Origin: Bacteroidota bacterium
GTDB taxonomy: Bacteria; Bacteroidota; Bacteroidia; Bacteroidales; UBA4417
Direction of reading: 5' to 3'
Length of the DNA stretch: 64,000 nucleotides
Assembly (NCBI GenBank): GCA_037142075.1
Contig: JBAXBJ010000001.1
Location: forward strand, 93,617 to 157,616
Below, in pieces: positions 1-18,957 of this stretch. The position numbers and the translations under genes are program-made. The notes under the pieces were generated by a model. The model was not told the DNA's origin. It worked only from the letters and a program-made list of their open reading frames with translations, and did not search any database. Each line of letters starts with the position of its first letter. Position 1 is the first letter of the stretch.

Positions 1-47
1 CCAGTTGTGTGTTCGAAATATATTTGTCAATCCATAGGAGTCTGTCT

Positions 48-725: not shown

Positions 726-764
726 ATTTATCTGTTATATTGTTTTGTATTATCCTATTAAGCA

Positions 765-900
765 GACACACAACGGTTGAGTCTATTAAAAGAGTCGGCT
801 AAGATGTTAGCCAACCCAAACAATTTTGTATGCATGAGAAGGTACTCCGATTTTACACTTTTAACAGCCATTTTTTATAACCTTTACCTACGTTTCGTGC
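765..900. repeat. degenerate attC-like intergenic palindrome
   Basis: Begins ACACAACGG, ends CGTTTCGTGC, with inner ...GGCT/AGCC... pairing; lies downstream of a minus-strand gene. Confidence 0.4.
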
Positions 901-951
901 TTTATCATTATTTTTCTTATTTAATAAATTATCATTGTTCATTGTCATATT

Positions 952-1284
952 TTAGAAAGGAAGAACATCCAGATAAATTGACTGATTAGATTCTTCAACA
1001 ATTATTGTTAGTCGAGCATGGATATGTTTTGTATCATAAAATTCATAATGCGCAACCGTTCTATTATCGGGATAAAGGAATTTTATTTTTAAGAACAATT
1101 CCCCGTCTGATTTCTTTTTAGAAGCCGCAAGCATATATTTGAAAAACTTATAAAAACCTTCCTTATCAGGCTCACAGGTTACTTTTTCGGAAAAAAGATA
1201 GGGTTTGAAATAACTCGGACGTGATTTGATACATGCTTTTATCAAAGCTTCTTTTATTGCTTCAATTGAGTCTTCGAATTGCAT
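952..1284 (-). CDS. hypothetical protein
   Basis: 110-aa ORF, co-oriented with neighbours. Confidence 0.7.
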   Translation of the reverse strand: MQFEDSIEAIKEALIKACIKSRPSYFKPYLFSEKVTCEPDKEGFYKFFKYMLAASKKKSDGELFLKIKFLYPDNRTVAHYEFYDTKHIHARLTIIVEESNQSIYLDVLPF

Positions 1285-1418
1285 AACAACATTTTAATTA
1301 GTAGTATTTTATACTTCTACGCTTTTAGTCACAATTATTGGTCTCAAAGATTCGAAAAGGTCAATTGAATAGCCAGAGTGTGGAAAGTTAAGTGCTTCTT
1401 CCTGTGTATGGTCAGCAG

Positions 1419-2102
1419 CTATTTGTATTTTTGTTTCCACTGATAAAGCTGACAAACAGCATCTTCAAGGTCGTCACAATATATTCTGCCACTTTTAATA
1501 TTAGTATAAAAATACTTACCTGATTTTTTTCCCTTGTATACTGCACCAGTACTATCGTCATGAAATCGAATTAAATAAGTTATATGACTACCCCAGACAA
1601 TATCATACTCATCTTTTTCTTTGATTACTTCATAACTATAAATTTCATTATCTTCATTTATAGAACCTGTTGTATTTGAACCAAAAATAGATGCAGCTTG
1701 ATTGTTTTTCAAATATTTATTCTCCAGAAATTTTAAAACATCGCCTATATTATTTAACTCTTTGTCATATTTTGTTTCGTTAACAAAGAATGCATAACTA
1801 TCAGTACTGTCAAGTTTAAGCGCAATTACATTTTCGTCAAAAAATCCATGTTTTAGCAAATAGCTTTCCTGTTTTGTGTCTATAAGCAAAGATTGATTCC
1901 CTAAATATTCCCATGAACCTTTATCAACAATTCCATTGGAAGAAATCAACAATTGATTATTGGGTCTAAAAATGAAAACTCTTTTAATTTGAGTTAAATC
2001 ACCCAGTGAAACCCAGTGTTGATTAGTCAGTTTAGTCAAGTCATCCAGTTTCTGGCTGAATCTTTGAATTTTAGGAATTATATCTGCTATAAAAGTTTTC
2101 AT
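1419..2102 (-). CDS. hypothetical protein
   Basis: 227-aa ORF. Confidence 0.8.
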   Translation of the reverse strand: MKTFIADIIPKIQRFSQKLDDLTKLTNQHWVSLGDLTQIKRVFIFRPNNQLLISSNGIVDKGSWEYLGNQSLLIDTKQESYLLKHGFFDENVIALKLDSTDSYAFFVNETKYDKELNNIGDVLKFLENKYLKNNQAASIFGSNTTGSINEDNEIYSYEVIKEKDEYDIVWGSHITYLIRFHDDSTGAVYKGKKSGKYFYTNIKSGRIYCDDLEDAVCQLYQWKQKYK

Positions 2103-2157
2103 AGAATAACCACCAATTATATGCTCTTATCTACAATAATAAACTGAACTCAATTAT

Positions 2158-2320
2158 TGCCAACATATAACTGCACTTCAAATGTAATGCATTTATTGCC
2201 ATACCCATCAAAGGAAGATTTTAATACCTAAAGCATCGCAAGGCTTCATTGGCTTACCCGTGTGGCATTGTTTAATAGTGGTTGAAACGTAGTCGTGCCG
2301 ATTGCAGCCTATGTTAGGCA
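2158..2320. repeat. attC-like imperfect inverted repeat
   Basis: TGCCAACATATAACTGCA ... TGCAGCCTATGTTAGGCA; ends in canonical GTTRRRY (GTTAGGC), 13 bp from the stop codon of 2334..3113. Confidence 0.6.
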
Positions 2321-2333
2321 GGCTCATAGCCAG

Positions 2334-3113
2334 TTATTTTGCCTTGACACATTTTAAATTAAAACCAAAGTTATTATTATATGGCATTGAAAACTTGTAT
2401 CCACAGCCTTGACAATATTGACCAGTATAGATTGGGACAAATTTATGGTCTTTTGAGCTATCAGTTGATGAAGACCAAAAATAGGAATAGTCATCAACAC
2501 CTGTTCCACCCTGATACTTAAATCCGCTACCAGAGGTGCAAAACCCCATACGTTCTAAAAACAAGAACATTATAACCATTTCATCTCCACGGGTCTCTTT
2601 TATTTTCAAAAAGTCATCAAATTTGGCTATTGCCAAATCTAATCTAAAAGTTGGAGGCAAACCTGTTCTTCTATATTTCCCTTTGCACTCGTTACAATGA
2701 ATATTTTGGGCATTTCCCAATAGTCTTTCAATAAGTTGTGGTGAAGATTTTTTTATGATTGAGTCATAAACATGGTGAAATAATTCATGCCAATCGCTTT
2801 CTGATGGTATTCTAAATGATTGTGGACATGCATCAATAGCTGCTTCCCAATCGTAAAGGTGGTCTCGGTACATCCTACCTCTATTTGTTTTATATTCAAT
2901 AATTCCACATGTCCAAGTTTGTTTTCCAATAGTAATTAATGAATAATTTTTCTTATCACGTTTATCTACAAAAGTTTCTGTGGGGCATATCGGTATTTCA
3001 GACAATAATGGTTGTTTTATTGTATCCGCACTTCTTTTATCTTTTTTTTCTGATTTATTTTGACAAGAAATAAGATAAATGGTGAAAAATAGCAATAAAA
3101 TCGTTGTCTTCAT
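2334..3113 (-). CDS. FISUMP (Fibrobacter succinogenes major paralogous domain) lipoprotein
   Basis: Lipobox LISC; DKRDKKNY..ITIGKQTW, LYDWEAA..ACPQSFRIPSESDW, YFWSSS, GFNLKCVK motifs. Confidence 0.8.
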   Translation of the reverse strand: MKTTILLLFFTIYLISCQNKSEKKDKRSADTIKQPLLSEIPICPTETFVDKRDKKNYSLITIGKQTWTCGIIEYKTNRGRMYRDHLYDWEAAIDACPQSFRIPSESDWHELFHHVYDSIIKKSSPQLIERLLGNAQNIHCNECKGKYRRTGLPPTFRLDLAIAKFDDFLKIKETRGDEMVIMFLFLERMGFCTSGSGFKYQGGTGVDDYSYFWSSSTDSSKDHKFVPIYTGQYCQGCGYKFSMPYNNNFGFNLKCVKAK

Positions 3114-3282
3114 TTTAACTGGTTAATTATAAATGCTTTATCTATATTAGCATTCTATTTTTGGACTTACCAATTCCGACCATGGTCTTCTAATACATCT
3201 TCAAATATAGAAATTATATTAGCTTACCAATTATACATTTCGCAATTGATTAAATTTGCTATTTCAAACAAATTCCAGCAAC

Positions 3283-4560
3283 TCATTTGTTATTTGCACT
3301 GAAAACGCTATCGAATTCCTTTTCAAAATTTACTTTATAGTATGCACACCAATATGAAATTATGGTATAACACAATGAATGTGATTTATTGAAAGCGATA
3401 GGTGCTTTCTCCAAAATCATAGTATCTAATTTGTCAATTTCTTCAGAACTTAAACTGCTATTTTCCCTACACCCAGATTTAAATTTAGACCTAAATTCAG
3501 ATATCTTTTCATCGTTCTTACCTTTAGATAGGATTCGTCTATATTTATCTGCTTCAGAATAACTAAATCCTGCAATAACATTTGATAAGTACATAAAAGT
3601 CTCCTGATAAATCAACGTGCCATAAGTTTCATGTAAGATTTCATTTACTCTTCCATCGCTTTTGTATGGGTCTATATATCCGTTTCGCTTATTCTTGATT
3701 AATGAAGGGATGTTGTTAATTGAGTAAGGACGGAACACAGCATTGATTATTGTTAAATCATATATTGAGGTAGGCTGGAAATCATGTAATATTTTACGCA
3801 TTGAATCTGAATTAAATTGAAAGATATCACTTAGGTCTCCATTTTTGAAAAAATCAAATACTTTTTTGTCGGTTAAAGGTAATTTATATGGGTGATACTC
3901 ATCCCCAATTAGTTTTACTATCAACTCTATTTTATTTAGATAATCCAGTTCTAATATGTCAAATTTATAATTGTCTAAGAATTTTGTATTCCTATAATTA
4001 TCAGTATAATAGTATTCCGTATCATTATATTCACCAATTGGAAAAGGCATTTTATCAGGTGAAATAATTATTGCGCAGGGATGTTTTTTATATGAAACGT
4101 CATTGATTATTACTGTTTCATATGTCTCACCACCAGAAGTAGGCAAAAAGGCAAGATTATAAATAAAATGCTTCGGCAACTCTGCTTTCAATTCTTCAAT
4201 TATCATCTTTTGATGTCCGCACGAAATATCAATATCTATATCCGCATTTATTGATAATTCAGGATTAAGAAATCTATCAAAAATTAACCCTTCTTGCAAT
4301 GGGTTGATTTTGGTAATATCTAAGCAATAATTTACAAGTGAACCACATGCTGAGCCTCTACCATAGGAACGAAGAACATCATGAGAATTACAGATTTTTA
4401 CAATTTTCGAATAATTGAGAAAGTAGTCAATGAGGTCAAGTTTTTCGATAATTGACAGTTCATAATTTAACCTATCCAAAACAACATCGTTTATTTCGAG
4501 TTGTTTTAACGAAGCACCATCATAAACTAATGATTTCAAAGTAGTTATTTTATTCTTCAT
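3283..4560 (-). CDS. dnaE: minimal DNA polymerase III alpha-like protein (palm + fingers only)
   Basis: GRGSACGSLV, FDRFLNPE, DIDID, KFDIL, ETYGTLIYQE, FNKSHS motifs; lacks PHP, most of the thumb and all C-terminal domains. Confidence 0.85.
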   Translation of the reverse strand: MKNKITTLKSLVYDGASLKQLEINDVVLDRLNYELSIIEKLDLIDYFLNYSKIVKICNSHDVLRSYGRGSACGSLVNYCLDITKINPLQEGLIFDRFLNPELSINADIDIDISCGHQKMIIEELKAELPKHFIYNLAFLPTSGGETYETVIINDVSYKKHPCAIIISPDKMPFPIGEYNDTEYYYTDNYRNTKFLDNYKFDILELDYLNKIELIVKLIGDEYHPYKLPLTDKKVFDFFKNGDLSDIFQFNSDSMRKILHDFQPTSIYDLTIINAVFRPYSINNIPSLIKNKRNGYIDPYKSDGRVNEILHETYGTLIYQETFMYLSNVIAGFSYSEADKYRRILSKGKNDEKISEFRSKFKSGCRENSSLSSEEIDKLDTMILEKAPIAFNKSHSLCYTIISYWCAYYKVNFEKEFDSVFSANNK

Positions 4561-4938
4561 TTTTAGGTATTAATAAAATATTATCACAGTCTTTTGTTAT
4601 TTCTATTTCAAAAATGTCTTAACTACCACAAAAATGTCAATCTAAAATAAAATAGGTTAAAAATCCTCCCATTAATTAGCCCGTGGTCGGCAATCCGAAC
4701 TATATTTTCATCTGGCAGAATTGCTACTGACACAGTCATAATAGCAAGACCTACTAATATCAGAATTATTTATTCATTGAGAAATCAATTTATAGAGCTA
4801 TTGTAAATCATAAGCAAAAAGTTCACCAGTAAAGGTGACGAAGTATCGAATATAGTCTAAAGCTTGCCAATTGTTATAACCTTTTGTGTATTGTTATTAA
4901 CCGATTACATGTGCACTGTAAATGCTTCACATGTTAAT

Positions 4939-5022
4939 AAACCGCTTTATACGAGAACCATACGCACTGTGGTGTGAGACGTGCACCCCGTCAGTGCTAA
5001 ATGGCTGGACTGTCTACTCGAT
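4939..5022 (+). mobile_element. group II intron remnant (domains V-VI, class IIC-like)
   Basis: AACCGCtttatacGAGAaccatacgcactgtggtgtGAGA (DV with CGC triad), DVI ending ...CTACTCGAT; no RT ORF. Confidence 0.75.
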
Positions 5023-5138
5023 AGGGGTATGTGCTTTGTCTTCCGCTGTCTTACTGTGCTGGCAAGACAAACTCTTATGCAATTTCTGGTCTGATTGTCA
5101 GTTTGTCGAATTGCGAAGGTGTATGGCTTTTGGGTGGA

Positions 5139-7271
5139 TTAATTACAATATCTCCTTTTTAATTCTTCAATCATTATGTCTATTGTTTTTAAAGCTATTT
5201 TACCTTGTCTGGAAACATTATTTTTCAAATGGTTAATTACTTCTTCGTTTGAATGCTTATCTAATTTAACCCAACTACCATCACTTTTTTTATATCCATT
5301 TTCTCTATGAACTTTTTGAATCCACTCTATTTCGGATTTTACTTTTTTCCATTCATTTTTTGGAATTAAAGAAGAAATATTTTCAAAAGCATTATAGTCT
5401 TGAATAAACAATTGATTGTCAACGTTATCAAAAAATATTGAAGTTTGTTTTGTAGTTGAATATTTTGGTGGCTTTTCTTCTTTTGTCTGTTTAGATTTAT
5501 TTTTTAAATATGCAATTACAGTTTTCCACTTACCAATCGTGCCTTTTGGATTTTCTATTTCTTCCAAAGCTTTGATAAAGTCTTCCGAAATCTCACCGCT
5601 GTATAACCTAGACATTTCAGTTTTATAAAATTGCTTGTCCTTCTCCTTTATACTTGCAAAGTCAGATGCATTAATTTCAATTTCTTGAGTTAGAATGGAA
5701 ATATTATTACTTGAAAGTTCTACTGTCTTTATCTCAGTATTAATTTTTGATTGGACTGTAATAGTTTTTTGCTTTTCTTCTTTTGGTATATCACCAGACA
5801 ATTCGATATTGTGCAACTGTTTATATATAGTTTTGTAATTTTTTGCCAAATAGTCATAATCTGATTCAAAAAGACTAGCTGTAAATACCCTTGATAAGTT
5901 TGCAAATCCACAAATACAACCATAAAAGCCAAAGGCAAGACGACCATCTTCAATTTCAGAAGAAATGAGAAAATCATTTAACTTTTCAAAATCTTCTCCT
6001 TTTAGAAGAAATGAAGCAATTGCAGATATTAAACCAGTATTCCAATTAATATTAAATGCTTCTTGCCCTGCAATATTTCGTCTTAAATTGTTTAGGAATT
6101 TATTTGCATCGTGGTTTTTCCATTCTTCGTCACCGACATAACTCTTAATTTTCCTTGTTATCTCGTCAGCTAAATTTGACTTTTCTGAACTAAATAAAGA
6201 TTCCGTAATATCAGAAGAAACAAAAATATCATTAATTAAATTTTGATACATTTCTTTTGTTTCTAGTTTCACAATAAATGGGTCTTCGTATTGTGTCAGT
6301 CTATTCCCAGCTAATGCAATGTTGCTCCAATCCAGTTTAGGTTTCACAATATTGCTACTTTCTATCATTTTATTACTCCAGTTTTTCAACTCTTGTAATG
6401 AAGTTTCATATTTTGCCTTATCTGTTAGGGAATGACTATAATTTTCGAAATTGTATTTATTTGGAATCCTCATTCCAAACTGGTTATATATTCTATTCCA
6501 AACATCATTGTATTGGTCAGGTAGAACTGTTTTTAAAAATTCTTTTACATCGTTGTATTGATGCGCATTAATTTTTTGTAAGAGAAATTTAAGTTCATCA
6601 TTTTGCTGTTGAGTACCATTACCAGAAACACTATTAACAATAGCTGAAGACAGATTGATGATTTTATTAATGACATTTTTTAATTGAATGTTTTCTTTTG
6701 ATGTTGAATTGTTTGCTGCAATTAAATATGCATATGCAAATCCTTTTATTTTGTTTTTTTGATTGTCATTTTCTAACTCATGATAATTGAGAATTGGCAA
6801 ATCAGATATTCCCTCTAACTTGTAATCTTTTTTTTCTGATTGATAGACTTTAATACAATTCCAATATAGCTTTACCAATTTAGTTTCAGCACTAGATTCG
6901 GAACGTGAAAGAATTGTACTTTTATCCTCAGATGAAAAGAAATATATATTTGAACTAAATGGGTTCAAGTAAATCGTTCTATCGATTTGCCAAATGTCAT
7001 TATGTATCTTTTTCAATCCGTTTACTTCGGAATCAATGTCAACTTCGATTACCATTGGATAATTGACTAATTCGCTTTTAGGGATTTGCAATTCGGGGAA
7101 TACTTCATAAAGAAGTAAGGAATTATTAAAGTTGTTTAATTCAACCTTCTCAAAAGTTTTATACCCAAAGTTTCTTTGAGTATAAAATACAAAAGGAGAT
7201 ATTGTCTCACAAGACATTATGTTGTTAAAGTTCAGAGAACTTGTTGGTATAAATAATTTCATAAATCTCAA
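5139..7271 (-). CDS. hypothetical protein, last gene of four-gene operon (N-terminus loosely DarT/ART-like)
   Basis: 710-aa ORF starting 3 bp after the helicase gene; N-terminal LFIPTSSLNFNNIMSCETISP. Confidence 0.8.
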   Translation of the reverse strand: MRFMKLFIPTSSLNFNNIMSCETISPFVFYTQRNFGYKTFEKVELNNFNNSLLLYEVFPELQIPKSELVNYPMVIEVDIDSEVNGLKKIHNDIWQIDRTIYLNPFSSNIYFFSSEDKSTILSRSESSAETKLVKLYWNCIKVYQSEKKDYKLEGISDLPILNYHELENDNQKNKIKGFAYAYLIAANNSTSKENIQLKNVINKIINLSSAIVNSVSGNGTQQQNDELKFLLQKINAHQYNDVKEFLKTVLPDQYNDVWNRIYNQFGMRIPNKYNFENYSHSLTDKAKYETSLQELKNWSNKMIESSNIVKPKLDWSNIALAGNRLTQYEDPFIVKLETKEMYQNLINDIFVSSDITESLFSSEKSNLADEITRKIKSYVGDEEWKNHDANKFLNNLRRNIAGQEAFNINWNTGLISAIASFLLKGEDFEKLNDFLISSEIEDGRLAFGFYGCICGFANLSRVFTASLFESDYDYLAKNYKTIYKQLHNIELSGDIPKEEKQKTITVQSKINTEIKTVELSSNNISILTQEIEINASDFASIKEKDKQFYKTEMSRLYSGEISEDFIKALEEIENPKGTIGKWKTVIAYLKNKSKQTKEEKPPKYSTTKQTSIFFDNVDNQLFIQDYNAFENISSLIPKNEWKKVKSEIEWIQKVHRENGYKKSDGSWVKLDKHSNEEVINHLKNNVSRQGKIALKTIDIMIEELKRRYCN

Positions 7272-7274
7272 ATT

Positions 7275-8321
7275 TTAAATGTCGCTAATTTCGTCAAATT
7301 CCGTTGTTTTATAAAAACGTTCTGGAACATTACCATTAATAAATGAAGTTAAATCTCCATTATGCATTATGTATAGGTTTTTATAAGTTCTTGTCATTGC
7401 AACATATAATGATTTTTGTTTGCTGTGTCCTTTACCATCATTTTCAATTGTGCAATCTGGCAAAAATACAGTTTCAAATTGTAATCCTTTCGCAGAATGA
7501 TAAGTCATCAATTTAGGATTGGAACTATTGAAATTTAAAGTATCTATGCCTTTACCATCTTCATTGTATCGTACTTCATTGTTTATACCAGCTTTAGTTA
7601 GTAAAATACTAGCATTTTTGACTTGCGCCCCTATAGGGAAAAATATTCCCACATCAGTTAGATTATTATTTTTAATTATTCTTGCAATTGCTTCTATTTG
7701 TTTATCGTAATTTGAATACCGAATAATTCGAGGGATTGAATTCTCAGTGCTTTTATAAGTACCTTCATTATATCGAGTTCCGACACCTATGTGGCTTTCA
7801 GTAACTTTAGCTATCGGCTTTGGTAACCTATAATTGAAATATAAAGGAAATTCTGACAATCCTGCTTGATAGGCAATATCACGAATGTTTTGTGTATCTT
7901 TCAATCCATCATATATTGACTGTGCTGTGTCTCCAAAAAAGAAAAAATGTTTACGGGTTGCCTTCTTGAATTCCTCAATTTCTTCTTTTGTAAAATCCTG
8001 TATTTCGTCAACTATTACATAATCTGATTTAGGACATCCTAGTCTGTTTTTCCAATGCCAGTGATAGTAAAAATCATTTTTTAACTCTAAGGCGTTTCGT
8101 CCAGAATTCATATAACCACTTAAAGATTTTGTAAAAACAATGATTTGATAGTCATTGCCTTTTTCTTTTTGAATCTGTTTTGCTTTGTGTAAAGCAATAA
8201 CTGATTTACCGCTACCAGCACACCCCGACACAACCATTGATTGGTCTAAGGTGCGGTATAATAAATCTCTTTGATAATCATCTAAATCTGATTCTTTAAT
8301 AAAAAAATCTTTCTTTGCCAT
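7275..8321 (-). CDS. short UvrD/SF1 helicase-like ATPase
   Basis: Walker A GCAGSGKS, Walker B VDEIQD, GDTAQSIY, NYR, TYHSAKGLQF, LYVAMTR. Confidence 0.9.
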   Translation of the reverse strand: MAKKDFFIKESDLDDYQRDLLYRTLDQSMVVSGCAGSGKSVIALHKAKQIQKEKGNDYQIIVFTKSLSGYMNSGRNALELKNDFYYHWHWKNRLGCPKSDYVIVDEIQDFTKEEIEEFKKATRKHFFFFGDTAQSIYDGLKDTQNIRDIAYQAGLSEFPLYFNYRLPKPIAKVTESHIGVGTRYNEGTYKSTENSIPRIIRYSNYDKQIEAIARIIKNNNLTDVGIFFPIGAQVKNASILLTKAGINNEVRYNEDGKGIDTLNFNSSNPKLMTYHSAKGLQFETVFLPDCTIENDGKGHSKQKSLYVAMTRTYKNLYIMHNGDLTSFINGNVPERFYKTTEFDEISDI

Positions 8322-8331
8322 ATCTTGATGT

Positions 8332-9639
8332 TTAAATTTTATAATTATCTTTAACTAAATCCCCTTTACTTTTTGTGCAATATTTCCCACAATTATCATC
8401 TCTTTCAAAGATGTTTATATATAAGCAGCTGTTTTCGAATGATGTAACATGATTCACAAAATTAGCATTTGCTAAAATTCGATAAGCTACCTTACTTTTA
8501 TCATTCATTTTTAGAGAATGAGTAATATTGAAAGTGCGCTGAGTAAAGCAATTGACAGAACAATCTTTTTCAAATTCACCACAAGAGACTGGAATAAGTG
8601 TTTTATAGTCACTTAATTCATTTACTGCCCTATTTACCTGTAAATTCATTAAGATAGGATTATAGGTTATCCCAACTTTTGTTGTTACATCTAACAACAA
8701 GAACAGCCCGACCTGTGATAATCTTGGCAAACTAAATTTTGTTAAGTTATAATAAATGTCAGTATTCCCTTCTGCAATGAGTTCGCAACCCATTTTAAAC
8801 GACATTATGAAATCATAATTTGAATCTATAATCCATTCTAAATCTTTTGCCGAATGTATTGATTGACACTTTGTAATCAGTTTTATGGTAAAAGTAGCTT
8901 TGTAAGTAAATTCATCTACTAAGCCGCTTAAAACGCTGAGAGCACTTGAATGCCCATCTACAGCAATGATATTAATATTTTTAGTTGCTAAGCAGTATTT
9001 ATTTATGGCAACTAATAAACCAATCAGATTTCCACCTGTACCGCATCCAATATCAAGAATATTTATTTCTTCTTTTGTTGCTAAATCCGAATAATGTTTG
9101 TTCTCAAAAATATTGTCAAATACACAAAAGCTTTCTCCATAGCTTCTTGGAAAATATGTACCGAGATAAACTCTCAATTCGTCATCTGACAAATTTAGGT
9201 TTTTTTCATACCGTTCGTGGTCAGGAGCATAATGGCCTTTGTATTTCTCGAAAATACTTTGTTGTAACCAAGTTGGCAGAATTGAAGAGTTTTTTAAAGC
9301 CTCTATTTGAGTTTGCTCTTTGCTAATTAATCTTGATTGGTCGTCCTTATGCTTTTCAATTAGTTTTTTTCGACTAAATCCTTCAAACCAGTAAAGAATA
9401 TTGTGATGATTGTTGTTGATGATACTTACTGGCTTGTGAAGAAAACTTTCATATTGTTCTTTCGCAATTGCAGTATCATTACTGTTAACCCAAATGCAAA
9501 CTATATAATCAGATTGAAATTCGATGTTTTCAATGATTTTGGGTAAAATGTCATTTTCACCGTACACCTGAAATTCATCGACATCTATCTCAATTGAATC
9601 AACAATTTGTTTTGCTAGTTGGGTTAGACTATCTCTCAT
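8332..9639 (-). CDS. class I SAM-dependent methyltransferase, Rsm22-like
   Basis: YLGTYFPRSY, ILDIGCGTGG, C-terminal P..C..C..CF.QR cysteine cluster. Confidence 0.75.
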   Translation of the reverse strand: MRDSLTQLAKQIVDSIEIDVDEFQVYGENDILPKIIENIEFQSDYIVCIWVNSNDTAIAKEQYESFLHKPVSIINNNHHNILYWFEGFSRKKLIEKHKDDQSRLISKEQTQIEALKNSSILPTWLQQSIFEKYKGHYAPDHERYEKNLNLSDDELRVYLGTYFPRSYGESFCVFDNIFENKHYSDLATKEEINILDIGCGTGGNLIGLLVAINKYCLATKNINIIAVDGHSSALSVLSGLVDEFTYKATFTIKLITKCQSIHSAKDLEWIIDSNYDFIMSFKMGCELIAEGNTDIYYNLTKFSLPRLSQVGLFLLLDVTTKVGITYNPILMNLQVNRAVNELSDYKTLIPVSCGEFEKDCSVNCFTQRTFNITHSLKMNDKSKVAYRILANANFVNHVTSFENSCLYINIFERDDNCGKYCTKSKGDLVKDNYKI

Positions 9640-9642
9640 TTG

Positions 9643-10671
9643 TTATGTTCCTGTAATAGTTTCAGATGTTTGACTGTTGTCTTTGATGCGATTATAGTTG
9701 TCTATAACAACCTTTTTACTTGTGTTGGCATAGCAATATTCGCACAAGTGAAGACAAGTGTTGTATTCACCGACATCCTTACTAAAAATGCAACCACAAA
9801 GTTCTCTCTGACCTTTATCTTTTAAATTCCGTTTTCTAATAGGTATTAGTTCTTCTCTTGTGTCAAATAAATCTGCTTTTTTAAGTTCATAGCCTAAGAA
9901 CTCCATTAGTTTCGTGTCATTATAAAATAGACGTTTCATTAAATCATCATCAATACACCTGTTGTGAATGATTCCATATTTTTCTAAATCTATTTTTTCT
10001 GCACAAGTACCAATTTCTATTTGCCACTTTTGATTTAGTTCTTTTAGTCCTTTTGCAAATTCATTCATTGAAATATCGTCAAATTCCGAATATTTTATAT
10101 TCTCTCTATTTAGGTTTGAATGAACCTTTCTATAAATCCCAATATCAGCAAAACTAAACACAAGCTTTTCTGTGTATTGAAACAATTGATTGCCAATTGT
10201 ATCTATTTTATTCAGTATTTCGTTTACTCCAATTTTGTCTGTAAGAATCAGTGGGTCAAATCTCCAAATAACTTTTTCTTTACCAATCTTTTCAGATAGT
10301 TTAATAAAAGTTTCAATTCTTGATTCCACACTAGGTACACTTGGCTCTAATTTTTCTTTTACATAGTCATTTAATGTAAATTGAAAATAGTAATTAAATT
10401 TTTTGTCATTTAAATAATCAAGATGCTGAATTATTGGTTTTGGATTTTTTGACCAAAACACGACTAATCGAGTGTTGTTAAATGTTACAAAAAGAGGTTT
10501 CTGGTTAAATGGATTTTTCCAGACCAGATATCCTTCTTTTAATCGGTTAATAAACCATTCCGAGTAAAATGCAGGTATATCAGTTGAGCGACTTGCGGAT
10601 AAAATAATAGGAGCTTGAGCTTCAAGAACTTCACCATCTTGTCTTGTCATTTTAATTTTTTCCCAATCCAT
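9643..10671 (-). CDS. DUF1848 family protein (radical SAM/SplB-related)
   Basis: ILSASRSTDIPAFY, VFWSKNP, WRFDP, C-terminal CGC..DVGEYNTCLHLCEYCYAN. Confidence 0.9.
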   Translation of the reverse strand: MDWEKIKMTRQDGEVLEAQAPIILSASRSTDIPAFYSEWFINRLKEGYLVWKNPFNQKPLFVTFNNTRLVVFWSKNPKPIIQHLDYLNDKKFNYYFQFTLNDYVKEKLEPSVPSVESRIETFIKLSEKIGKEKVIWRFDPLILTDKIGVNEILNKIDTIGNQLFQYTEKLVFSFADIGIYRKVHSNLNRENIKYSEFDDISMNEFAKGLKELNQKWQIEIGTCAEKIDLEKYGIIHNRCIDDDLMKRLFYNDTKLMEFLGYELKKADLFDTREELIPIRKRNLKDKGQRELCGCIFSKDVGEYNTCLHLCEYCYANTSKKVVIDNYNRIKDNSQTSETITGT

Positions 10672-10675
10672 TAAA

Positions 10676-10894
10676 CTACAGTATTTTGAAATTTAGATAA
10701 AAGTACAAAGATTTTGCGGGGTACCAATATTCTTGCTCTTTGCAAAGTTTTGATTGGATGGTCGTTACAAGCACCAACGAGCCGTCATTATTGATGTCAG
10801 CATTAATGACATCATTGTTTCCAATTGTTCTGATAAGTGATCCACTGTCTTTACGAAGTTCTACTTTACCGCTGACGATTTTAAGGATGTTCAT
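10676..10894 (-). pseudogene. probably truncated small beta-repeat protein
   Basis: GKVELRKDSGSLIRTIG unit followed by an unrelated-looking tail. Confidence 0.45.
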
Positions 10895-11092
10895 CGGTTT
10901 AAGATTTTATATTTTTTGTCTGCTGTGGTCAAATGTAGTGTAATAATTCAACCTACAGCATCCAATCAATAGTTGAATGTTTTTCTTTCATTTTATCCCA
11001 AAACCCCTCGCTCCAATCCATGACCACGGTAGCTTGCCAATCATTCGGAAAGCCAGTAAACACAGAATTTACCATTTTGCTTCCACAACCCT

Positions 11093-11410
11093 TTATCGGG
11101 GAATTGATTTCATAAAGTTTATATATTTATATTTTGGCTCAAATAGAATTGTTAAACCAATGGCGGAAAGGTGATTTGTTGTAGTAATTGGATTTTTCAC
11201 TCGTGTTCCAGCGATTTCACTTGAAGCAGCAATACTGTTGTCAGTTAGTTTTAAATATTTAATAAAATCCAGTGTGGATAGTCTGATTGCCATATTTACG
11301 ATTTCATCAGGTAGTTCTTTCACCCGATGAATTGCCAATATGTCCGTACCATTTTGGATTATTGGCATGAACATACTTTCAAATTCCTTTCTTTTTACCC
11401 AATTATCCAT
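11093..11410 (-). CDS. hypothetical protein
   Basis: 105-aa ORF 11 bp downstream of the SEC-C gene. Confidence 0.65.
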   Translation of the reverse strand: MDNWVKRKEFESMFMPIIQNGTDILAIHRVKELPDEIVNMAIRLSTLDFIKYLKLTDNSIAASSEIAGTRVKNPITTTNHLSAIGLTILFEPKYKYINFMKSIPR

Positions 11411-11421
11411 AGCTTAGTATT

Positions 11422-11886
11422 TTATTTGCCACAACATTTTTTGAACTTCAATCCGCTACCGCAGGAACAGGGTTCATTTCGTAACGGTGTTTTAGCTGCA
11501 ATTATTTTAGCTGTATTTTTATCAGGTAAAAAACGAACTAAAGGCACTGGATTTTCATCAGTTCCAATTTCAAGGTGTTTCTTTTCATCTGGGATTCTGT
11601 TCAGATCAATGATTCCTTCAATTAAATACTGAAGATCAGCAGATGCCCGAATTCCAAATGCTGCTGCTTGTATCACTTGATCGTTATCAAACACAACAAC
11701 TGGACACTTAGTACAAAAATGACTACCTGAATGATTGGTCATAAATTCACCTTGATCTGATTTTGTTTTTACTGAAAGAAGAATCGTACAGTTAAATTCA
11801 AGCAATTCAGAACCGCATTCAGGGCAATGTTTTAACCCACAATCCCTACTGTAATATCTTCTTTTTGACGTAGATAAATCAATCAT
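11422..11886 (-). CDS. SEC-C motif protein with N-terminal zinc ribbon
   Basis: CPECG...CTKC; C-terminal RNEPCSCGSGLKFKKCCG. Confidence 0.85.
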   Translation of the reverse strand: MIDLSTSKRRYYSRDCGLKHCPECGSELLEFNCTILLSVKTKSDQGEFMTNHSGSHFCTKCPVVVFDNDQVIQAAAFGIRASADLQYLIEGIIDLNRIPDEKKHLEIGTDENPVPLVRFLPDKNTAKIIAAKTPLRNEPCSCGSGLKFKKCCGK

Positions 11887-11916
11887 ATTAGTGTTTTTTT
11901 AGAACGGATAATAGTG

Positions 11917-12027
11917 TTACGCCAATTTGAGGTAAGGTGGATATTAGCATTACATTTCATTGACAAACATATGAATGTATATTCGAATGAAAAATATCCA
12001 ATAATCTACTTCACCCGTTGTATGTAA
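11917..12027. repeat. degenerate attC-like palindrome
   Basis: TTACGCCAAT..GGTAAGGTGGATATTA pairs imperfectly with TAATCTACTTCACCCGTTGTATGTAA, 10 bp from the antitoxin stop. Confidence 0.4.
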
Positions 12028-12037
12028 TAGGTTATGG

Positions 12038-12352
12038 TTATTGCTCAAGACTGATTTTGAAATGAGGCAATTCAACTTGTAACATCACTTTCGCCTGTAA
12101 AGCATTAAATACTCGCATAAGAGTCTCAATTGTAACATTACTGGCATTATTTTCAATTCTCGAAATTTGTGCTTTTTGCACACCAATTAGTTTCCCAAGC
12201 TCCTCTTGAGTTAATTTTCGCTCCTGTCTTGTCTGTTTTATTGCTTGCCCAATTAAGTCCATTTGTAATTCATATTCAAATCTGTCACGGTTTGGGGTGC
12301 CAATTTTACCGATAAGTTTATCTTGAACTTCGTCTAAAGTATGTGTTTTCAT
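12038..12352 (-). CDS. XRE-family HTH antitoxin (HigA-like)
   Basis: IKQTRQERKLTQEELGKLIGVQKAQISRIEN; overlaps the upstream toxin by 4 bp. Confidence 0.9.
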   Translation of the reverse strand: MKTHTLDEVQDKLIGKIGTPNRDRFEYELQMDLIGQAIKQTRQERKLTQEELGKLIGVQKAQISRIENNASNVTIETLMRVFNALQAKVMLQVELPHFKISLEQ

Positions 12353-12708
12353 TTCTTTGTCTTATTAGTGATTTCTTTATCTTCAAAATATCGTGAACGA
12401 ACTTGCTTTGCCTTCTGAATTTCGCTGTCAGGTGTTTTGCTGGTTTTCTTGACTATTCCATGGGTTGAAATAACAAGGGTATTTTCAGAAATTGTTTTAT
12501 CCCAAAATGCAAACAACCTATAATGAATTCCTTGATATAGCGTTCTGAATTCCCAAATCTCATCTTTAAGTTTTTTGAATAGTTCAGGATCATGCCTTGT
12601 CTGAGCTTTACGAATATTAAAGATGATTTTTTCGTAGTGCTTCTTCTCAAGATTACTGAGAAATTCAAAAGTCTCGTCTAAAAATATAATGTCAAAAAGT
12701 TTGTCCAT
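12349..12708 (-). CDS. RelE/ParE-superfamily toxin (HigB/Gp49-like)
   Basis: FKKL..EIWEFRT..YRLFAFWD..THGIVKKTSKTP..EI. Confidence 0.9.
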   Translation of the reverse strand: MDKLFDIIFLDETFEFLSNLEKKHYEKIIFNIRKAQTRHDPELFKKLKDEIWEFRTLYQGIHYRLFAFWDKTISENTLVISTHGIVKKTSKTPDSEIQKAKQVRSRYFEDKEITNKTKK

Positions 12709-12728
12709 TCATTTAATGCTTGATAGTG

Positions 12729-12736
12729 CAAAGGTA
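12729..12736 (-). promoter_or_regulatory. Bacteroidota -7 promoter element of the TA operon
   Basis: TACCTTTG on the minus strand 20 bp upstream of the toxin ATG. Confidence 0.6.
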
Positions 12737-12879
12737 CTTAATATGTTTCTATATAATGAAACTATTTTTAGATTGGATTTTTTTTTCAACTATGATCTAT
12801 AATGTTTGAGTTTAACAATTTGGCGGTTATTGAGCTTCGCCAAGGATATCAAAACTAATTAGCTTAACATTTTTATGCT

Positions 12880-13000
12880 ACAAGCCATTATCGCAGAAAT
12901 AGGGTTCATTTCGTAATGGTAATTGTCTGCTATTAGAAGATCGGTATTTATATCAGGTACGAAACGGGCTAATAAGTTATCCCATTTCTACGTTTATATT
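12880..13000 (-). pseudogene. decayed copy of the 3' part of the SEC-C gene
   Basis: AGGGTTCATTTCGTAATGGT...TATCAGGTACGAAACG matches 11470-11540. Confidence 0.6.
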
Positions 13001-13008
13001 TTGATTTA

Positions 13009-13239
13009 TCAAATTGTGAATGAGTATTTCCTACCGTCATCCAAACTATGGCTACCCATATTATGCCAATGAACCCAAATATCCCCTGACTTATTCTCAT
13101 AGTTATGGAACTCAACCCAGCCGTCAGAATGAGTTCGTTTTTCATCCGTTCCACCTAACCAGCCATAGTCGATCATCACACCAATATCACCTGCTGGTTT
13201 ACCGTCTTTATAGGTTACTTTTACTGAGAAGTGGCTCAT
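13009..13239 (-). CDS. small hypothetical protein
   Basis: 76-aa ORF coupled (TAATG overlap) to the NERD gene. Confidence 0.65.
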   Translation of the reverse strand: MSHFSVKVTYKDGKPAGDIGVMIDYGWLGGTDEKRTHSDGWVEFHNYENKSGDIWVHWHNMGSHSLDDGRKYSFTI

Positions 13240-14048
13240 TATTCAAATATCCTTTCCTTGCCCAACATATTCTTAATATTTCCTATATGCTGTATTTGAG
13301 TTTCCATATTTTCTCCATTTTGCACGCCTTCTTTTAAAATCCTCACAACATCGGCTTTATTTGTATAAGGAGCTGGTTCATTATTTTTTGCAATTATTTT
13401 CATAACCTCTAATACTCTTTTCGATTTCACAAGGTAAGTTCCATTCGGAACGAAACTTACCTCCTTCAAAACACAGTCACCATAAAACACCACGATTGAA
13501 TAAAATGGGATATTTTGAAATTGTTCTAATTGCATCTTTAAATCAATTATATGCTTATTATTCTGCATTATAGGATTGTAAAAACGGTATTTATTTTTTC
13601 CGTACGCTAACACTTGTGTCCATTGGGCATAATTTCCATTTCCATAAATCCAACCGCTGAAATCCTTTACTTCGAATACTATAATCCCCACCTTCGTGAC
13701 TACTACCAAATCAATTTGAGAAAAATCACCATCCTTCTTTTTTACATATAGGTCGTGAAAAATGGTCTGTGCAGGTATTCCGTGTTTCAAAAGTTTTAAT
13801 ACCAAATCTCTTTCTGTTTTTGTGCCTCTATTTGATTTCGTGACGGTATTTAATATTTTTTTGTCTCGTATTTTACTAAAGATGAAAATGAAGCTAAAAA
13901 GGAGAACTATACTAATTATAATCCACATCAGGATACTCGGATATGGCATTATATCTTTTTTAAATGGTTCTTGCACCCAAAATAAAACGATAATCAAGAA
14001 TAATGCAATTCCGAATGTCTTTTGTTTTTTGGAACCAATTTTAATCAT
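13239..14048 (-). CDS. NERD domain nuclease with N-terminal TM helices
   Basis: SQIDLVVV..GIIVFEVKDFSGWIYG..W..FYNPIMQN..H. Confidence 0.85.
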   Translation of the reverse strand: MIKIGSKKQKTFGIALFLIIVLFWVQEPFKKDIMPYPSILMWIIISIVLLFSFIFIFSKIRDKKILNTVTKSNRGTKTERDLVLKLLKHGIPAQTIFHDLYVKKKDGDFSQIDLVVVTKVGIIVFEVKDFSGWIYGNGNYAQWTQVLAYGKNKYRFYNPIMQNNKHIIDLKMQLEQFQNIPFYSIVVFYGDCVLKEVSFVPNGTYLVKSKRVLEVMKIIAKNNEPAPYTNKADVVRILKEGVQNGENMETQIQHIGNIKNMLGKERIFE

Positions 14049-14150
14049 TAACTGAAATCTTTATTACAGGTCTCAACAAATTTTGCTGGTGACGAAGTTT
14101 CAATTATGTTACCAAATTCGCCATTTATAGCCTATATTATGTGACTTTTT

Positions 14151-14717
14151 TTATTTGTCATCTGGTAATCCTATTCTTGATAGAAAGTTAGCAAAACGAT
14201 GGGAGATTTGCTCCCTATATAATTCCGATACTTTACATACAAAATTATTTTCCTTGTGTGTGTCCATATACTTGATATTTACTGTGAAATAATGCTTAAA
14301 ATCGATAACAGATTCCACAATAGGTATAGATGAATCAAATTCAAGGAAATGATAGCGGGGATTCTGATTGGCTTTCAAGAACTTATTATCACTTTTGTCT
14401 GATTTTCGGCTAATTTCCTGCATTTTAAGTCCTAATTCACTTAAATGTTCTCCGCTATACAAATGTTCAACATTGTAAATAGGGGCGACAATTACTGAAA
14501 TCAAATGTTTATCGTGATTTTGTGGGTTAGTTTTATTTCTATTTGTAAAGTCTTGTTGTAAATCACAGTCTTGAGTCAAAACCAATACTAATGGAAATAT
14601 AATTTTTGAAATCTCTATACCACCTTCCTTTTCTATTGCATATTCAATCATTTCAACATTTTTTAAAATGTCACCCTGACATACACGAGATTCTTTATTT
14701 ATATCAATCCTGACCAT
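14151..14717 (-). CDS. hypothetical protein (QGDI...VLTQDCDL family, possibly PemK-like fold)
   Basis: CQGDIL, VLVLTQDCDL, FLSRIGLP motifs; follows the TIGR04255 gene. Confidence 0.7.
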   Translation of the reverse strand: MVRIDINKESRVCQGDILKNVEMIEYAIEKEGGIEISKIIFPLVLVLTQDCDLQQDFTNRNKTNPQNHDKHLISVIVAPIYNVEHLYSGEHLSELGLKMQEISRKSDKSDNKFLKANQNPRYHFLEFDSSIPIVESVIDFKHYFTVNIKYMDTHKENNFVCKVSELYREQISHRFANFLSRIGLPDDK

Positions 14718-14889
14718 TTGTTAGTTTCGCTTTAATAATTACTCTTCGAGGTTTTGAAATACCATAAATTTCAAAGTCATTTGTAGAACAATCCTCTATT
14801 TTCGAGACTTCCTTAACTATTGTAGTTTCTTTTATACCTGTTTGTGATTCAGGTTGATATTCTTGTGAAAAATATTCTGTATCGCTCAT
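14704..14889 (-). CDS. small protein of the TIGR04255 triad
   Basis: 61-aa ORF overlapping both neighbours. Confidence 0.55.
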   Translation of the reverse strand: MSDTEYFSQEYQPESQTGIKETTIVKEVSKIEDCSTNDFEIYGISKPRRVIIKAKLTNGQD

Positions 14890-15632
14890 TATTTATAAAT
14901 TGTTCTAAATCTTTCTGTAATCGAACTTTCAAATAATTTTTGAATAGCAATATGAAACTCGGGGAAATAGCTATCTAATTCATCTTTTCCTAAAATCCCA
15001 GATGTATATGCATCATAATCCAAAATAAAAGCCTTCTTCTTAATTGGTGCAGGATAGTCTGGATTATGCATACCATATTGAAATCTCACATTGAACTCTC
15101 CAAAATTTAATTCCAAATTATGAAAAGCACGTGCGATAATTTGCTTGTTTTCAGGTATGTTAAAAATACAGAGCAAGTTTTTGTTTAATAGTTGAGTCCA
15201 ATTAAATGGGTCACCCTTTTCAATCTCAATATTATTTACATAGCGCATTCCAAATCTTTGTAATTGTAGATTAAAAATTTTAAAAAATGGATTAACAATA
15301 GTGAAAAAATCACTGCTAAATTTCACATAACTTTCATAATCATTATGGACAAGTAGCAAAGAGTCTTTTGTTATAACAAGTTTTCTATTTCTTTCCTTAT
15401 TGTGAAAGTTCCATTCTTTGACTTTGTTCTCATTTTGAGTCACTCCTTTATTTGAGATTTGAAGTTCTCTTGCAATTACTTCTCTTGGTTCAGGTATTGG
15501 AAATAATTTTTTAATTATTGAAATTAATTCACTCGGTATCTCATCATTAAATTGAGGTATCGGAATAAGAAAATCCAATCTGATGATGGCTTCCTTAATC
15601 GGATTTTTTGTGTAACAAATATCTTCAAGCAT
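14889..15632 (-). CDS. TIGR04255 family protein
   Basis: Y.KNPIKEAIIRLDF, Y.SY..F, RFGMRYVNNI, FILDYDAY. Confidence 0.8.
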   Translation of the reverse strand: MLEDICYTKNPIKEAIIRLDFLIPIPQFNDEIPSELISIIKKLFPIPEPREVIARELQISNKGVTQNENKVKEWNFHNKERNRKLVITKDSLLLVHNDYESYVKFSSDFFTIVNPFFKIFNLQLQRFGMRYVNNIEIEKGDPFNWTQLLNKNLLCIFNIPENKQIIARAFHNLELNFGEFNVRFQYGMHNPDYPAPIKKKAFILDYDAYTSGILGKDELDSYFPEFHIAIQKLFESSITERFRTIYK

Positions 15633-16723: not shown

Positions 16724-16776
16724 TATGCTGAATTAGAAAAAACAACAAACTCTTAAAATTACCTCATTTTTTTTAC

Positions 16777-16784
16777 TACCTTTG
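16777..16784 (+). promoter_or_regulatory. Bacteroidota -7 promoter element
   Basis: TACCTTTG upstream of the structured leader. Confidence 0.5.
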
Positions 16785-16857
16785 ATTATAACAAATCCAA
16801 ATTGTATGGTATAGAGAAAAGACATAAAATATAAAAGAGACGTTAGCTATTAGCCTA

Positions 16858-18946: not shown

Positions 18947-18957
18947 CTTCTAAGCAA

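Follow-up and report, generated by a model that had tools for sequence, protein, structure and literature searches.

A candidate mobile defense cassette of Bacteroidota that joins a minimal UvrD-like ATPase, a partner with a predicted DarT-like domain and two putative SAM-dependent proteins

Introduction

What function is encoded by four closely spaced genes at positions 5139–10671 of a 64,000-nucleotide stretch of a Bacteroidota genome (order Bacteroidales, UBA4417; GenBank assembly GCA_037142075.1, contig JBAXBJ010000001.1, positions 93,617 to 157,616 of the forward strand), and do these genes belong to a known system of anti-phage defense? Hereafter, the whole stretch is called the window and the four genes are called the cassette. 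An earlier note, made from the sequence without database searches, had read the genes as a DUF1848 protein, an Rsm22-like methyltransferase, a short UvrD ATPase and a 710-amino acid (aa) protein whose N-terminus loosely resembled DarT. It had proposed a nucleic-acid modification or damage-sensing anti-phage operon belonging to no named system, and had listed gene co-occurrence and defense-island context among the checks. The explanation that we favor, and to which we give about an even chance, is a mobile defense cassette in which a helicase-coupled, DarT-like ADP-ribosyltransferase (ART) core of the DarHTG/2CompART kind is joined by a pair of S-adenosylmethionine (SAM)-dependent proteins.

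Four genes form one unit with sharp borders

The four open reading frames (ORFs) are co-oriented on the minus strand (window 5139–10671) and are separated by gaps of 3, 10 and 3 bp, exactly as the earlier note had them and as they stand in the ORF listing. The genes and their main subdivisions are as follows.

9643..10671, minus strand: gene 1 (D), DUF1848 protein, 342 aa, radical-SAM-like
8332..9639, minus strand: gene 2 (M), class I SAM-binding methyltransferase-fold protein, 435 aa, with a predicted Rsm22/METTL17-like fold
7275..8321, minus strand: gene 3 (U), minimal UvrD-like SF1 ATPase, 348 aa, without 1B/2B inserts
5139..7271, minus strand: gene 4 (X), large partner protein X710, 710-aa ORF with a TTG start
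6819..7271, minus strand: N-terminal domain of X710 (N-domain), residues 1–151, predicted ART fold with DarT closest (AlphaFold2 [AF2] model)
5769..6254, minus strand: central conserved block of X710, residues ~340–501, with W384, L396, F406 and AFGxxGxxxGFAN
5138..10672, minus strand: the cassette as a single, apparently transferable unit, given by the extent of blastn identity to loci L001, L065, L002 and L003

One refinement concerns the last gene. An ATG at window 7262, three codons inside the X710 ORF, is the start in relatives and in an identical database record (P0005, 707 aa). Because these proteins begin there, the true X710 is probably a 707-aa protein translated from the inner ATG, which would widen the final gap to 12 bp.

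A set of 80 related loci was collected by a motif of X710 alone. All four genes were present in 62 of these loci in tblastn searches, and the co-occurrence check therefore came out in favor of the note's proposal. The ATPase gene was found in 78 loci, the DUF1848 gene in 70 and the methyltransferase gene in 67, and several of the 18 loci that miss a gene are contigs ending at the cassette. Labeling of ORFs gave all four genes in 58 of the 80 loci and adjacent helicase and X710 genes in 73. By this labeling, the gene order MUXD was found in 51 loci, the window's own order, DMUX, in three and MDUX in two, and the helicase–X710 pair stood alone in four.

Comparison with the four closest loci, L001, L065, L002 and L003, gave blastn identities to the window of 83%, 79.5%, 77% and 80%, respectively, over a span of 5138/5145–10672 only. 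When window 1–16000 was compared with these loci, nothing was matched outside the cassette, and their flanks differ (phosphofructokinase, integrase fragments, recombinase, type I restriction subunit). The four genes form one unit with sharp borders, and this unit appears, from the sequence comparisons, to be mobile or transferable. Pairwise distance matrices for 51 loci were correlated at 0.72–0.84 among the methyltransferase, the ATPase and X710, values that are inflated by the kinship of the loci.

The distribution of X710 was patchy; of 201 genomes sampled from the order, 4 had it, as did 2 of 301 from the phylum. The search of the order did not find it in G442, a genome of the same genus, and no empty site was seen when that genome was compared, the DUF1848 gene being the only match. 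Additional genes occur within some cassettes. In L003, whose cassette is otherwise 80% identical, a 464-aa ORF (6363–7757) that matches no Pfam or PADLOC family separates the methyltransferase gene from that of the ATPase. Between the X710 and DUF1848 genes, L008 carries a second, divergent UvrD-like paralogue (11486–12520) and L007 a SIR2-like gene (8810–9928).

The ATPase and X710 are predicted to form a core pair

The gene 3 product matched the Pfam families Viral_helicase1 (6.7e-13), UvrD_C (1.2e-9) and UvrD-helicase (1.3e-8), with UvrD-helicase, UvrD_C and AAA_19 all above the Pfam cut-offs, and its best PADLOC matches were "NERD+UvrD" (2.9e-16) and GajB (3.6e-16). It retains Walker A (GCAGSGKS), DEIQD, GDTAQ, YHSAKGLQFE and VAMTRT, which are conserved in 69–74 relatives; the residues of motifs I, II, III, V and VI are invariant in 69 sequences. 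A homologous counterpart is the DarH helicase of L110, a DarHTG-type locus that encodes a 495-aa helicase, a 226-aa DarT and a 524-aa ADP_ribosyl_GH protein. The two ATPases share 27% identity (E 7e-12), and DarH has an extra segment of ~165 residues. The description of gene 3 as a 348-aa SF1 ATPase with its motifs kept but too short for 1B/2B domains was thus accurate, the motifs being intact and the DarH segment absent.

Structure prediction for the ATPase together with residues 1–640 of X710 gave a complex with interface scores (ipSAE) of 0.83, 0.82 and 0.83, and the best of three controls scored 0.00. The local confidence (pLDDT) of the partners was at least 81 and the runs shared at least 58% of contacts. 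Of 80 solved complexes, 58 pass the mark applied to such predictions, as do 2 of 110 mismatched pairs; these counts are a rough guide here, where custom alignments were used. We know of no solved complex like that of the ATPase and X710, although a pass by likeness is possible. On the X710 side, the predicted interface comprises residues 13–20, 35–39, 67–70, 119–130 and 202–223 together with residues of the central block (358–376, 390–406, 423–437 and 457–462). In the model, X710 residues 202–223 face residues 235–268 of the ATPase. From these models, the ATPase and X710 are predicted to form the core pair of the cassette.

The N-terminal domain of X710 has a predicted ADP-ribosyltransferase fold

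Searches of Pfam, PADLOC and NCBIfam at E ≤ 0.1 assigned X710 to no family, apart from a single match at chance level, and its profile matched no solved-structure sequence below E 0.05. It has 125 relatives at E ≤ 0.001, and the profile of its N-domain recovered 754 clusters (50% identity) from 1.84 billion representatives. Among the 150 best matches listed, the N-domain was always N-terminal; no longer fused forms (1244–3550 aa) were found, which is weak evidence. The first ~215 residues are the best-conserved part of the protein. Residues P9, L13, N14, N16, N17, I18, S20, E22, S25, P26, R33, G36, E129, K131 and G177 are invariant in 71 sequences, and columns of the central block are conserved in 120 X710 sequences. 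DNA-binding modules occur in some of the 67 relatives scanned (Zn_ribbon_Top1 in 7, HHH_RecD2 in 8).

An AF2 model of residues 1–222 reached a pLDDT of 89.2 and a pTM of 0.79. In a VIA-align comparison with 48,161 chains, DarT came first: 8baq_A (Z 8.7, root-mean-square deviation [rmsd] 3.5, 131 residues aligned), 7omu_BBB (Z 8.1), 7omv_AAA (Z 8.0) and 7yk3_C (Z 7.4). These four superpositions had rmsd values of 3.2–3.7 over 123–132 aligned residues and covered model residues 1–151. Tpt1 followed (Z 6.5 and 5.3), and most of the best 50 rows were, by title, ADP-ribosyltransferases, PARPs and ART toxins. DarT rows were also the best in Foldseek (E 0.021–0.048, prob 0.80–0.89). Among Atlas models, the one for homologue P0083 had a DarT cluster among its matches (TM 0.46, 147 residues aligned), below the bar applied, and that of P0011 (residues 1–215) retrieved its own family and no DarT row. 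Taken as model-based results, the comparisons provide good evidence that the N-domain has an ART fold with DarT nearest. Judged by their conservation, residues R33, E76 and E129 may be considered candidate catalytic or NAD-binding positions.

A reading of E76...E129xK131 as a PD-(D/E)xK nuclease site was dropped, since hhalign against NERD and YhcG nuclease alignments gave probabilities below 1%.

Parallel loci encode 2CompART proteins

A second kind of related locus is defined by the Pfam domains PF22546 (2CompART) and PF22545 (2CompARG), the ART and glycohydrolase domains of a "2-Component system". No paper describing that system was found, and the accessible part of PMC9503650 does not describe it. 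Directly before the 2CompART gene, a homologous minimal UvrD-like gene is present in four of the five published loci (G119, G027, G636 and G599); the fifth, L155, starts too near the contig end to judge, and the unpublished G576 was left aside. In G119, a genome of the same order, the locus L146 (984–6158) encodes, in succession, DUF1848, a UvrD-like protein (26% identical), a 534-aa protein and a 501-aa protein. The 534-aa protein consists of 2CompART (E 2e-22) and 2CompARG (6.4e-9), and a motif I like that of methyltransferases is present in the 501-aa protein. The L146 operon is a divergent sister of the window cassette. It adjoins a HipA_2 kinase gene. In G027, three genes stand in succession, encoding a UvrD-like protein, a 2CompART protein of 709 aa and a protein resembling the methyltransferase (hhalign of the last to the methyltransferase family, Prob 65.6%).

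At the level of X710 itself, the sequence matches to 2CompART are insignificant. With a gathering score of 27 bits for PF22546, X710 gave no match at E ≤ 1, and 4 of 67 X710 relatives gave sub-threshold 2CompART matches (best E 0.0041). A colinear hhalign alignment of the N-domain with 2CompART had an E of 0.0021 and Prob 13.6% over 99 columns. The top phmmer matches between the two ran N-terminus to N-terminus in all cases (best E 0.0011 in 342 sequences). The X710 central block aligned with the region after the 2CompART ART domain (E 0.036, Prob 1.4%, 151 columns), an alignment that is colinear and insignificant. A metagenome scan with the L146 2CompART protein found no relative.

A methyltransferase-fold protein and a DUF1848 protein accompany the pair

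The gene 2 product matched Pfam families weakly (CheR, 0.002; Methyltransf_31, 0.0075), matched the N-terminal part of the PADLOC model RT_UG35 at 2.3e-7 and had no match below E 0.05 among the sequences of solved structures. Its core spans residues ~120–390, and the N-terminal ~120 residues are found in about one third of relatives. Motif I reads DIGCGTGG, with G200, G203 and G207 invariant in 63 relatives. Invariant features of the family are YLGTYFPRSYxE, GCGTGG, D228-G, K282, E286, Y296, D317 and H374. The most frequent family matches among the 63 relatives were Methyltransf_31 (40), CheR (34) and Methyltransf_23 (25).

The proposed kinship with Rsm22/METTL17 fared differently by fold and by sequence. 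The AF2 model (pLDDT 87.9) gave VIA-align Z scores of 22.3 (8csp_7, 292 residues aligned, rmsd 3.9), 20.9 (6sg9_F1) and 20.2 (8d8j_0), with the next row at 15.1. By their entry titles, these three top matches are human, trypanosome and yeast mitoribosomal small-subunit assembly intermediates; 258–292 residues were aligned, within model residues 101–435. The structure entries give titles only, and we take the three matching chains to be METTL17/Rsm22. The modeled fold of gene 2 is Rsm22/METTL17-like by a clear margin, with a Rossmann core followed by a C-terminal domain. Sequence tests did not recover this relationship. PF09243 (Rsm22) gave no match to the window protein at E ≤ 0.1, a genome-wide PF09243 search gave no signal at the gene, and the 18 families to which the 63 members had matches at E ≤ 0.01 did not include PF09243. 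An hhalign comparison with three bacterial Rsm22-family proteins reached Prob 58% with motif I as the only aligned part. Conserved cysteine ligands for an Fe-S cluster are a feature of the Rsm22/METTL17 family. The window protein has six C-terminal cysteines (C352, C359, C363, C405, C417 and C421), which are not conserved among the 63 members. The note's Rsm22/METTL17 assignment is upheld by the fold and is not upheld by the sequence tests.

Some members of the family are fused to nucleases. Matches to NERD, PIN_4 and HEPN_Swt1 were found in 8, 5 and 2 of the 63 proteins, respectively; in L012, L043 and L063, methyltransferase–PIN fusions occur in loci without DUF1848. The long variants of L051, L053 and L054 have a NERD-bearing N-terminus (~5–241) that matches the PADLOC candidate PDC-M16A (E 2.9e-34), which links the cassette to that candidate system.

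The gene 1 product is a full-length match to PF08902 (E 2.5e-95; 319.7 bits against a cut-off of 30.5; model 1–262) and matches the PADLOC model RTasDUF1848 at 1.4e-46. The C-terminal CxxxCxxC seen earlier corresponds to C306-x3-C310-x2-C313, which is kept, together with C292-G-C294, throughout an alignment of 67 cassette homologues. Since the methyltransferase cysteines are not conserved, the suggestion of two Fe-S/SAM enzymes would hold at most for some members. An hhalign comparison of the DUF1848 cluster loop with 25 PA0069-type radical SAM proteins, which are annotated as DNA-repair photolyase-like, gave Prob 95.3% and E 2.2e-8 with only 24 columns aligned. DUF1848 had no match below E 0.05 among the sequences of solved structures, and no characterization of it was found in the literature searched.

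The cassette lies in a defense island

The context check likewise agreed with the earlier proposal, with BREX (bacteriophage exclusion) operons and restriction and toxin–antitoxin genes found around cassettes. In L074, L075 and L079, the helicase–X710 pair occupies the interval from pglX to pglZ of a BREX operon; in L055, L077 and L080, either the cassette or the pair has BREX genes beside it. Among 132 immediate neighbors scanned, 78 had a Pfam match, and 27 were of defense type and 10 of mobile-element type by our own classification, which had no background control. The window's own neighborhood contains a SEC-C protein, a HigBA-like pair, NERD, a resolvase, an AAA operon, HNH, a uracil-DNA glycosylase (UDG)-family gene and a type I restriction–modification system. 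The setting is a defense island.

Directly upstream of the cassette, window 11422–16723 encodes the SEC-C motif protein, the Gp49/HTH (HigB/HigA-like) pair, a 269-aa NERD protein and the resolvase. Four co-oriented minus-strand ORFs occupy 18958–23164, one of which alone has a known domain (AAA). The wider region 18958–41271 also contains a DUF2779 protein, an MT-A70 fragment, HNH, a TPR protein, the UDG-family protein and a HATPase_c_3 protein, and in it the type I restriction system (HsdR, HsdS) is split by an SLFN_AlbA_2/HATPase_c_4 gene. On the other side, a 425-aa minus-strand ORF (3283–4560) matches only pieces of DNA polymerase III alpha, namely the NTPase domain (model 3–122 of 260) and the finger domain, and resembles a dnaE-type gene, truncated or split, that adjoins the island.

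The G+C content is about 0.28–0.32 and even over the cassette region. A promoter and terminator scan of the operon did no better than shuffled sequences, the consensus used being that of sigma-70, which may not suit this host. Rfam gave no match in window 1–20000 (E ≤ 0.1), and a tRNA scan of window 1–40000 found none. The cassette is separated from the next gene by 578 bp, and in this gap a ~100-nt segment (4914–5022) is richer in G+C than its surroundings. It is repeated at 82–83% identity on contigs C166 and C127 of the same genome, with partial copies on C52 and again on C166, and it had no Rfam match (E ≤ 0.1). The segment may be a small repeat, the end of a mobile element or an unclassified RNA.

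Discussion

From the linkage, borders, folds, predicted interface and context computed above, we infer an ART activity, its substrate, a role for the SAM-dependent arm and an anti-phage function, the last of which the cassette probably has. In the proposed core, the minimal UvrD-like ATPase would bind X710, whose N-domain is predicted to have the DarT fold. DarT is an enzyme that ADP-ribosylates thymidine in single-stranded DNA (ssDNA). Loaded onto invading or replicating nucleic acid, or moved along it, by the ATPase, the pair would ADP-ribosylate this nucleic acid (most likely ssDNA) in an NAD-dependent reaction gated by the ATPase, such that phage replication would be blocked. By analogy, this model follows the mode of action proposed for the validated system DarH–DarT–DarG3 (DarHTG). 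The Rsm22/METTL17-like protein and DUF1848 would constitute a second, SAM-dependent arm traveling with the core, which might replace the missing DarG-type antitoxin or self-protection, or might add a second effector.

A number of results weigh against a helicase-coupled ART cassette of this form. As regards the ART domain, best Z scores of 7–8 in VIA-align are typical even for models without true relatives, and the N-domain match is therefore read as evidence of fold and not as proof of activity. Foldseek gave no match of the N-domain at E ≤ 0.001. By sequence, X710 had no Pfam match to DarT (PF14487) at E ≤ 0.1, and hhalign of the N-domain reached probabilities of 0.14% against 17 canonical DarT sequences, 0.17% against 120 of the DarHTG type and 0.40% against the combined sets. 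The note's impression of a DarT/ART-like N-terminus is thus carried by the fold, for which DarT was best in both VIA-align and Foldseek, and finds no echo in the profile comparisons with DarT. Against five 2CompART sequences, hhalign of the N-domain was insignificant (E 0.046, Prob 1.15%, 106 columns), though the best of eight targets, and 2CompART proteins were not among the top 15 of 1207 background ORFs ranked by the N-domain hidden Markov model. The invariant N-domain residues 13, 16–17, 20, 35–39 and 125–130 overlap the predicted ATPase interface, which weakens a purely catalytic reading of them; they may be kept for ATPase binding rather than for catalysis. No ADP-ribose-removing antitoxin (macrodomain DarG, NADAR or ARH-like DarG3) was matched in the four cassette proteins in Pfam, PADLOC or NCBIfam.

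The second arm raises difficulties of its own. Ribosome-assembly factors are the closest relatives of the methyltransferase fold, and this points to RNA rather than DNA. DUF1848 is out of step with the other three genes, its distance correlations in the 51 loci being only 0.21–0.36. It is present in 55 of 301 genomes of the phylum, 50 of which belong to a single family (f22) of 63 genomes. There it is a lone gene with variable neighbors; no X710 match was found in any of the 63 genomes, and no cassette partner was found beside DUF1848 in the sampled loci. The DUF1848 profile also matches the Bacteroides thetaiotaomicron control. The lone occurrence in 50 of 63 genomes and the B. thetaiotaomicron match suggest a housekeeping role for the f22 branch.

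If the SAM-dependent proteins are given the leading part, the cassette could resemble a restriction–modification system, with the methyltransferase and DUF1848 marking host nucleic acid and the ATPase–X710 pair scanning for, or acting on, unmarked molecules. This is a possible but unlikely arrangement. Five uncut loci have the pair and no methyltransferase, and in four of them (L074, L075, L077 and L079; not L060) a PglX-type N6-adenine methylase is encoded just upstream of the helicase, its gene being adjacent in L075 and L077 and separated by small zinc-ribbon or WYL genes in L074 and L079. However, the pglX–pglZ interval is possibly a plain insertion hotspot, as at other BREX loci. The resemblance of the DUF1848 cluster loop to PA0069-type radical SAM proteins would suit a marking enzyme, as would the recurrence of a methyltransferase-like domain and DUF1848 with other motors, namely the UG25 reverse transcriptases (RTs), as far as the accessible part of PMC9226505 describes them, and MkoA-like and DpdF-like helicases. 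On the other hand, no family or motif of DNA methylases was seen in the methyltransferase (N6_Mtase matched 2 of 63 members, at 0.006), and its fold neighbors are rRNA-binding factors. Its PIN and HEPN fusions suggest RNA cleavage and not epigenetic marking, and three loci with PIN fusions lack DUF1848, the other half of the supposed marking pair.

The overlap between invariant residues and interface is also what a Gabija- or Hachiman-like system would predict, in which ATPase–X710 is a sensor or scaffold with a dead ART-fold domain and killing falls to the methyltransferase-fused nucleases or to the SAM enzymes. The NERD, PIN_4 and HEPN_Swt1 fusions, the SIR2-like gene within the L007 cassette and the "NERD+UvrD" and GajB matches of the ATPase fit this picture too. 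We nevertheless consider it rather improbable, because 48 of the 63 methyltransferase proteins, including that of the window, have no NERD, PIN_4 or HEPN_Swt1 match, because the N-domain is the best-conserved part of X710 and its invariant polar residues E22, R33, E129 and K131 exceed the usual needs of a scaffold, and because relatives have recognizable 2CompART and 2CompARG domains in the same position. Finally, a non-defense role as a mobile nucleic-acid repair or RNA/ribosome-modification operon (rRNA/tRNA), with a helicase and an ADP-ribose-handling protein, would accommodate the near-universal lone DUF1848 gene of f22, the mitoribosome-assembly fold of the methyltransferase and the inclusion of the RNA-repair enzyme Tpt1 (Z 6.5) in the ART fold, but is very unlikely in view of the very patchy distribution of a unit found in unrelated genomic contexts, the helicase–X710 pair inside BREX operons, the nuclease fusions and the wealth of defense and mobile genes among the neighbors.

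The helicase-coupled ART cassette thus remains our preferred reading, and as such it would extend the idea of a helicase-coupled DarT to a large family outside Pfam, NCBIfam and PADLOC 2.0.0. DUF1848, a putative enzyme with no characterization in the literature searched, recurs beside several unrelated defense motors, and the cassette gives it an immune context. Where it lies inside BREX operons, the cassette is a candidate second layer of defense. Should ADP-ribosylated nucleic acid be the target of the SAM-dependent arm, or should this arm mark self, a testable function would follow for DUF1848 and for Rsm22-like proteins of bacteria, and a mechanistic handle for the UG25 and UG35 RT systems.

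A more far-reaching version is speculative and, in our estimation, unlikely: the cassette may represent a new class of helicase-coupled ADP-ribosylation immunity, in which the usual glycohydrolase antitoxin is replaced by chemistry that is not known from defense so far, that of a permuted, spore-photoproduct-lyase-like radical SAM protein and an Rsm22/METTL17-like protein. The SAM pair would then undo or further process the ADP-ribosyl–nucleic-acid adduct, or build a SAM-derived self mark. If this were true, the pair, which also combines with reverse transcriptases and with helicases of the Mokosh- and Dpd-like kinds, would be a general immune module.

Comparison with known systems

No PADLOC (2.0.0) system matches the four-gene set, in agreement with the note's failure to recognize a named system; the core pair nonetheless has related kinds in DarHTG and 2CompART. 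The helicase–ART core is therefore precedented, and no precedent was found in the literature and databases searched for the X710 family, for its fusion of roles or for an arm made of DUF1848 and an Rsm22-like protein.

DarHTG (Liu-DS3) comprises a UvrD-family helicase without a 2B domain, DarT and the ADP-ribosylglycohydrolase-like antitoxin DarG3 (PMC13069673, NAR 2026). According to the accessible part of that report, it protected against T4 and T7, defense was lost in ATP-site and DarT mutants, the system is frequent in Bacteroidota and helicase-coupled DarT systems were validated only in 2026. In both DarHTG and the cassette, the gene for a minimal UvrD-family ATPase lies directly upstream of the gene for a protein with a known or predicted DarT fold. 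They differ in that X710 is ~700 aa long and is not a Pfam DarT, that the cassette ATPase is without the ~165-residue insert of DarH, and that the cassette has two putative SAM-dependent proteins instead of a DarG3 gene. ADP-ribosylglycohydrolase genes were found near the cassette in 3 of the 80 loci (L017, L031 and L059), in L059 directly upstream of a lone X710 gene. With DarTG, the likeness lies in DarT (PF14487) being the closest solved fold of the X710 N-domain; unlike DarT, X710 is much larger, has no sequence similarity to DarT and no macrodomain DarG partner, and is predicted to bind an ATPase. The 2CompART proteins occupy the same place as X710 behind a minimal UvrD-like gene, are followed by a methyltransferase-like gene in G027 and G119 and are preceded by DUF1848 in G119. 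Their motif blocks are colinear with those of X710, though the profile comparisons are insignificant (Prob 1–14%).

Gabija similarly combines a UvrD-like ATPase with a larger effector, and GajB models match the cassette ATPase at up to 3.6e-16. However, this ATPase has 348 aa against about 500–690 profile positions of GajB, and no PADLOC model of GajA matched any of the four cassette proteins at E ≤ 0.1. As for METTL17/Rsm22, the fold of these mitoribosome assembly factors is the best match of gene 2 over residues 101–435, including the C-terminal domain, whereas gene 2 has no PF09243 match, has cysteines that are not conserved and is encoded in a defense-type cassette.

The SAM-dependent arm has its nearest parallels in RT systems. 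Mestre et al. (2022, PMC9226505) describe both UG25 and UG35 as methylase–RT fusions, the former accompanied by DUF1848 and the latter by a UvrD-like helicase; in the accessible part of that paper, the defense role of both is called inconclusive. The window DUF1848 and methyltransferase match precisely the PADLOC models of these systems (RTasDUF1848 and RT_UG35). The cassette differs in having X710 in place of an RT-repeat protein and no reverse transcriptase; for UG/Abi enzymes, there was no RVT Pfam match in the cassette, and the only match to an RT model was to its methylase region (positions 50–155 of 938). Other motors occur with the same partners. In L109 (G442:C38, 7897–12489), a DUF1848 gene follows the gene for a 1165-aa MkoA-like SF1 helicase with a methyltransferase-like N-terminus, and in L050, the neighbors of DUF1848 are an X710 relative and a helicase that is DpdF-like. 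Both helicases have N-termini that align with the methyltransferase family (Prob 94.8%, E 5e-8), and the L109 pair is possibly a two-gene relative of the SAM-dependent arm on a Mokosh-type motor.

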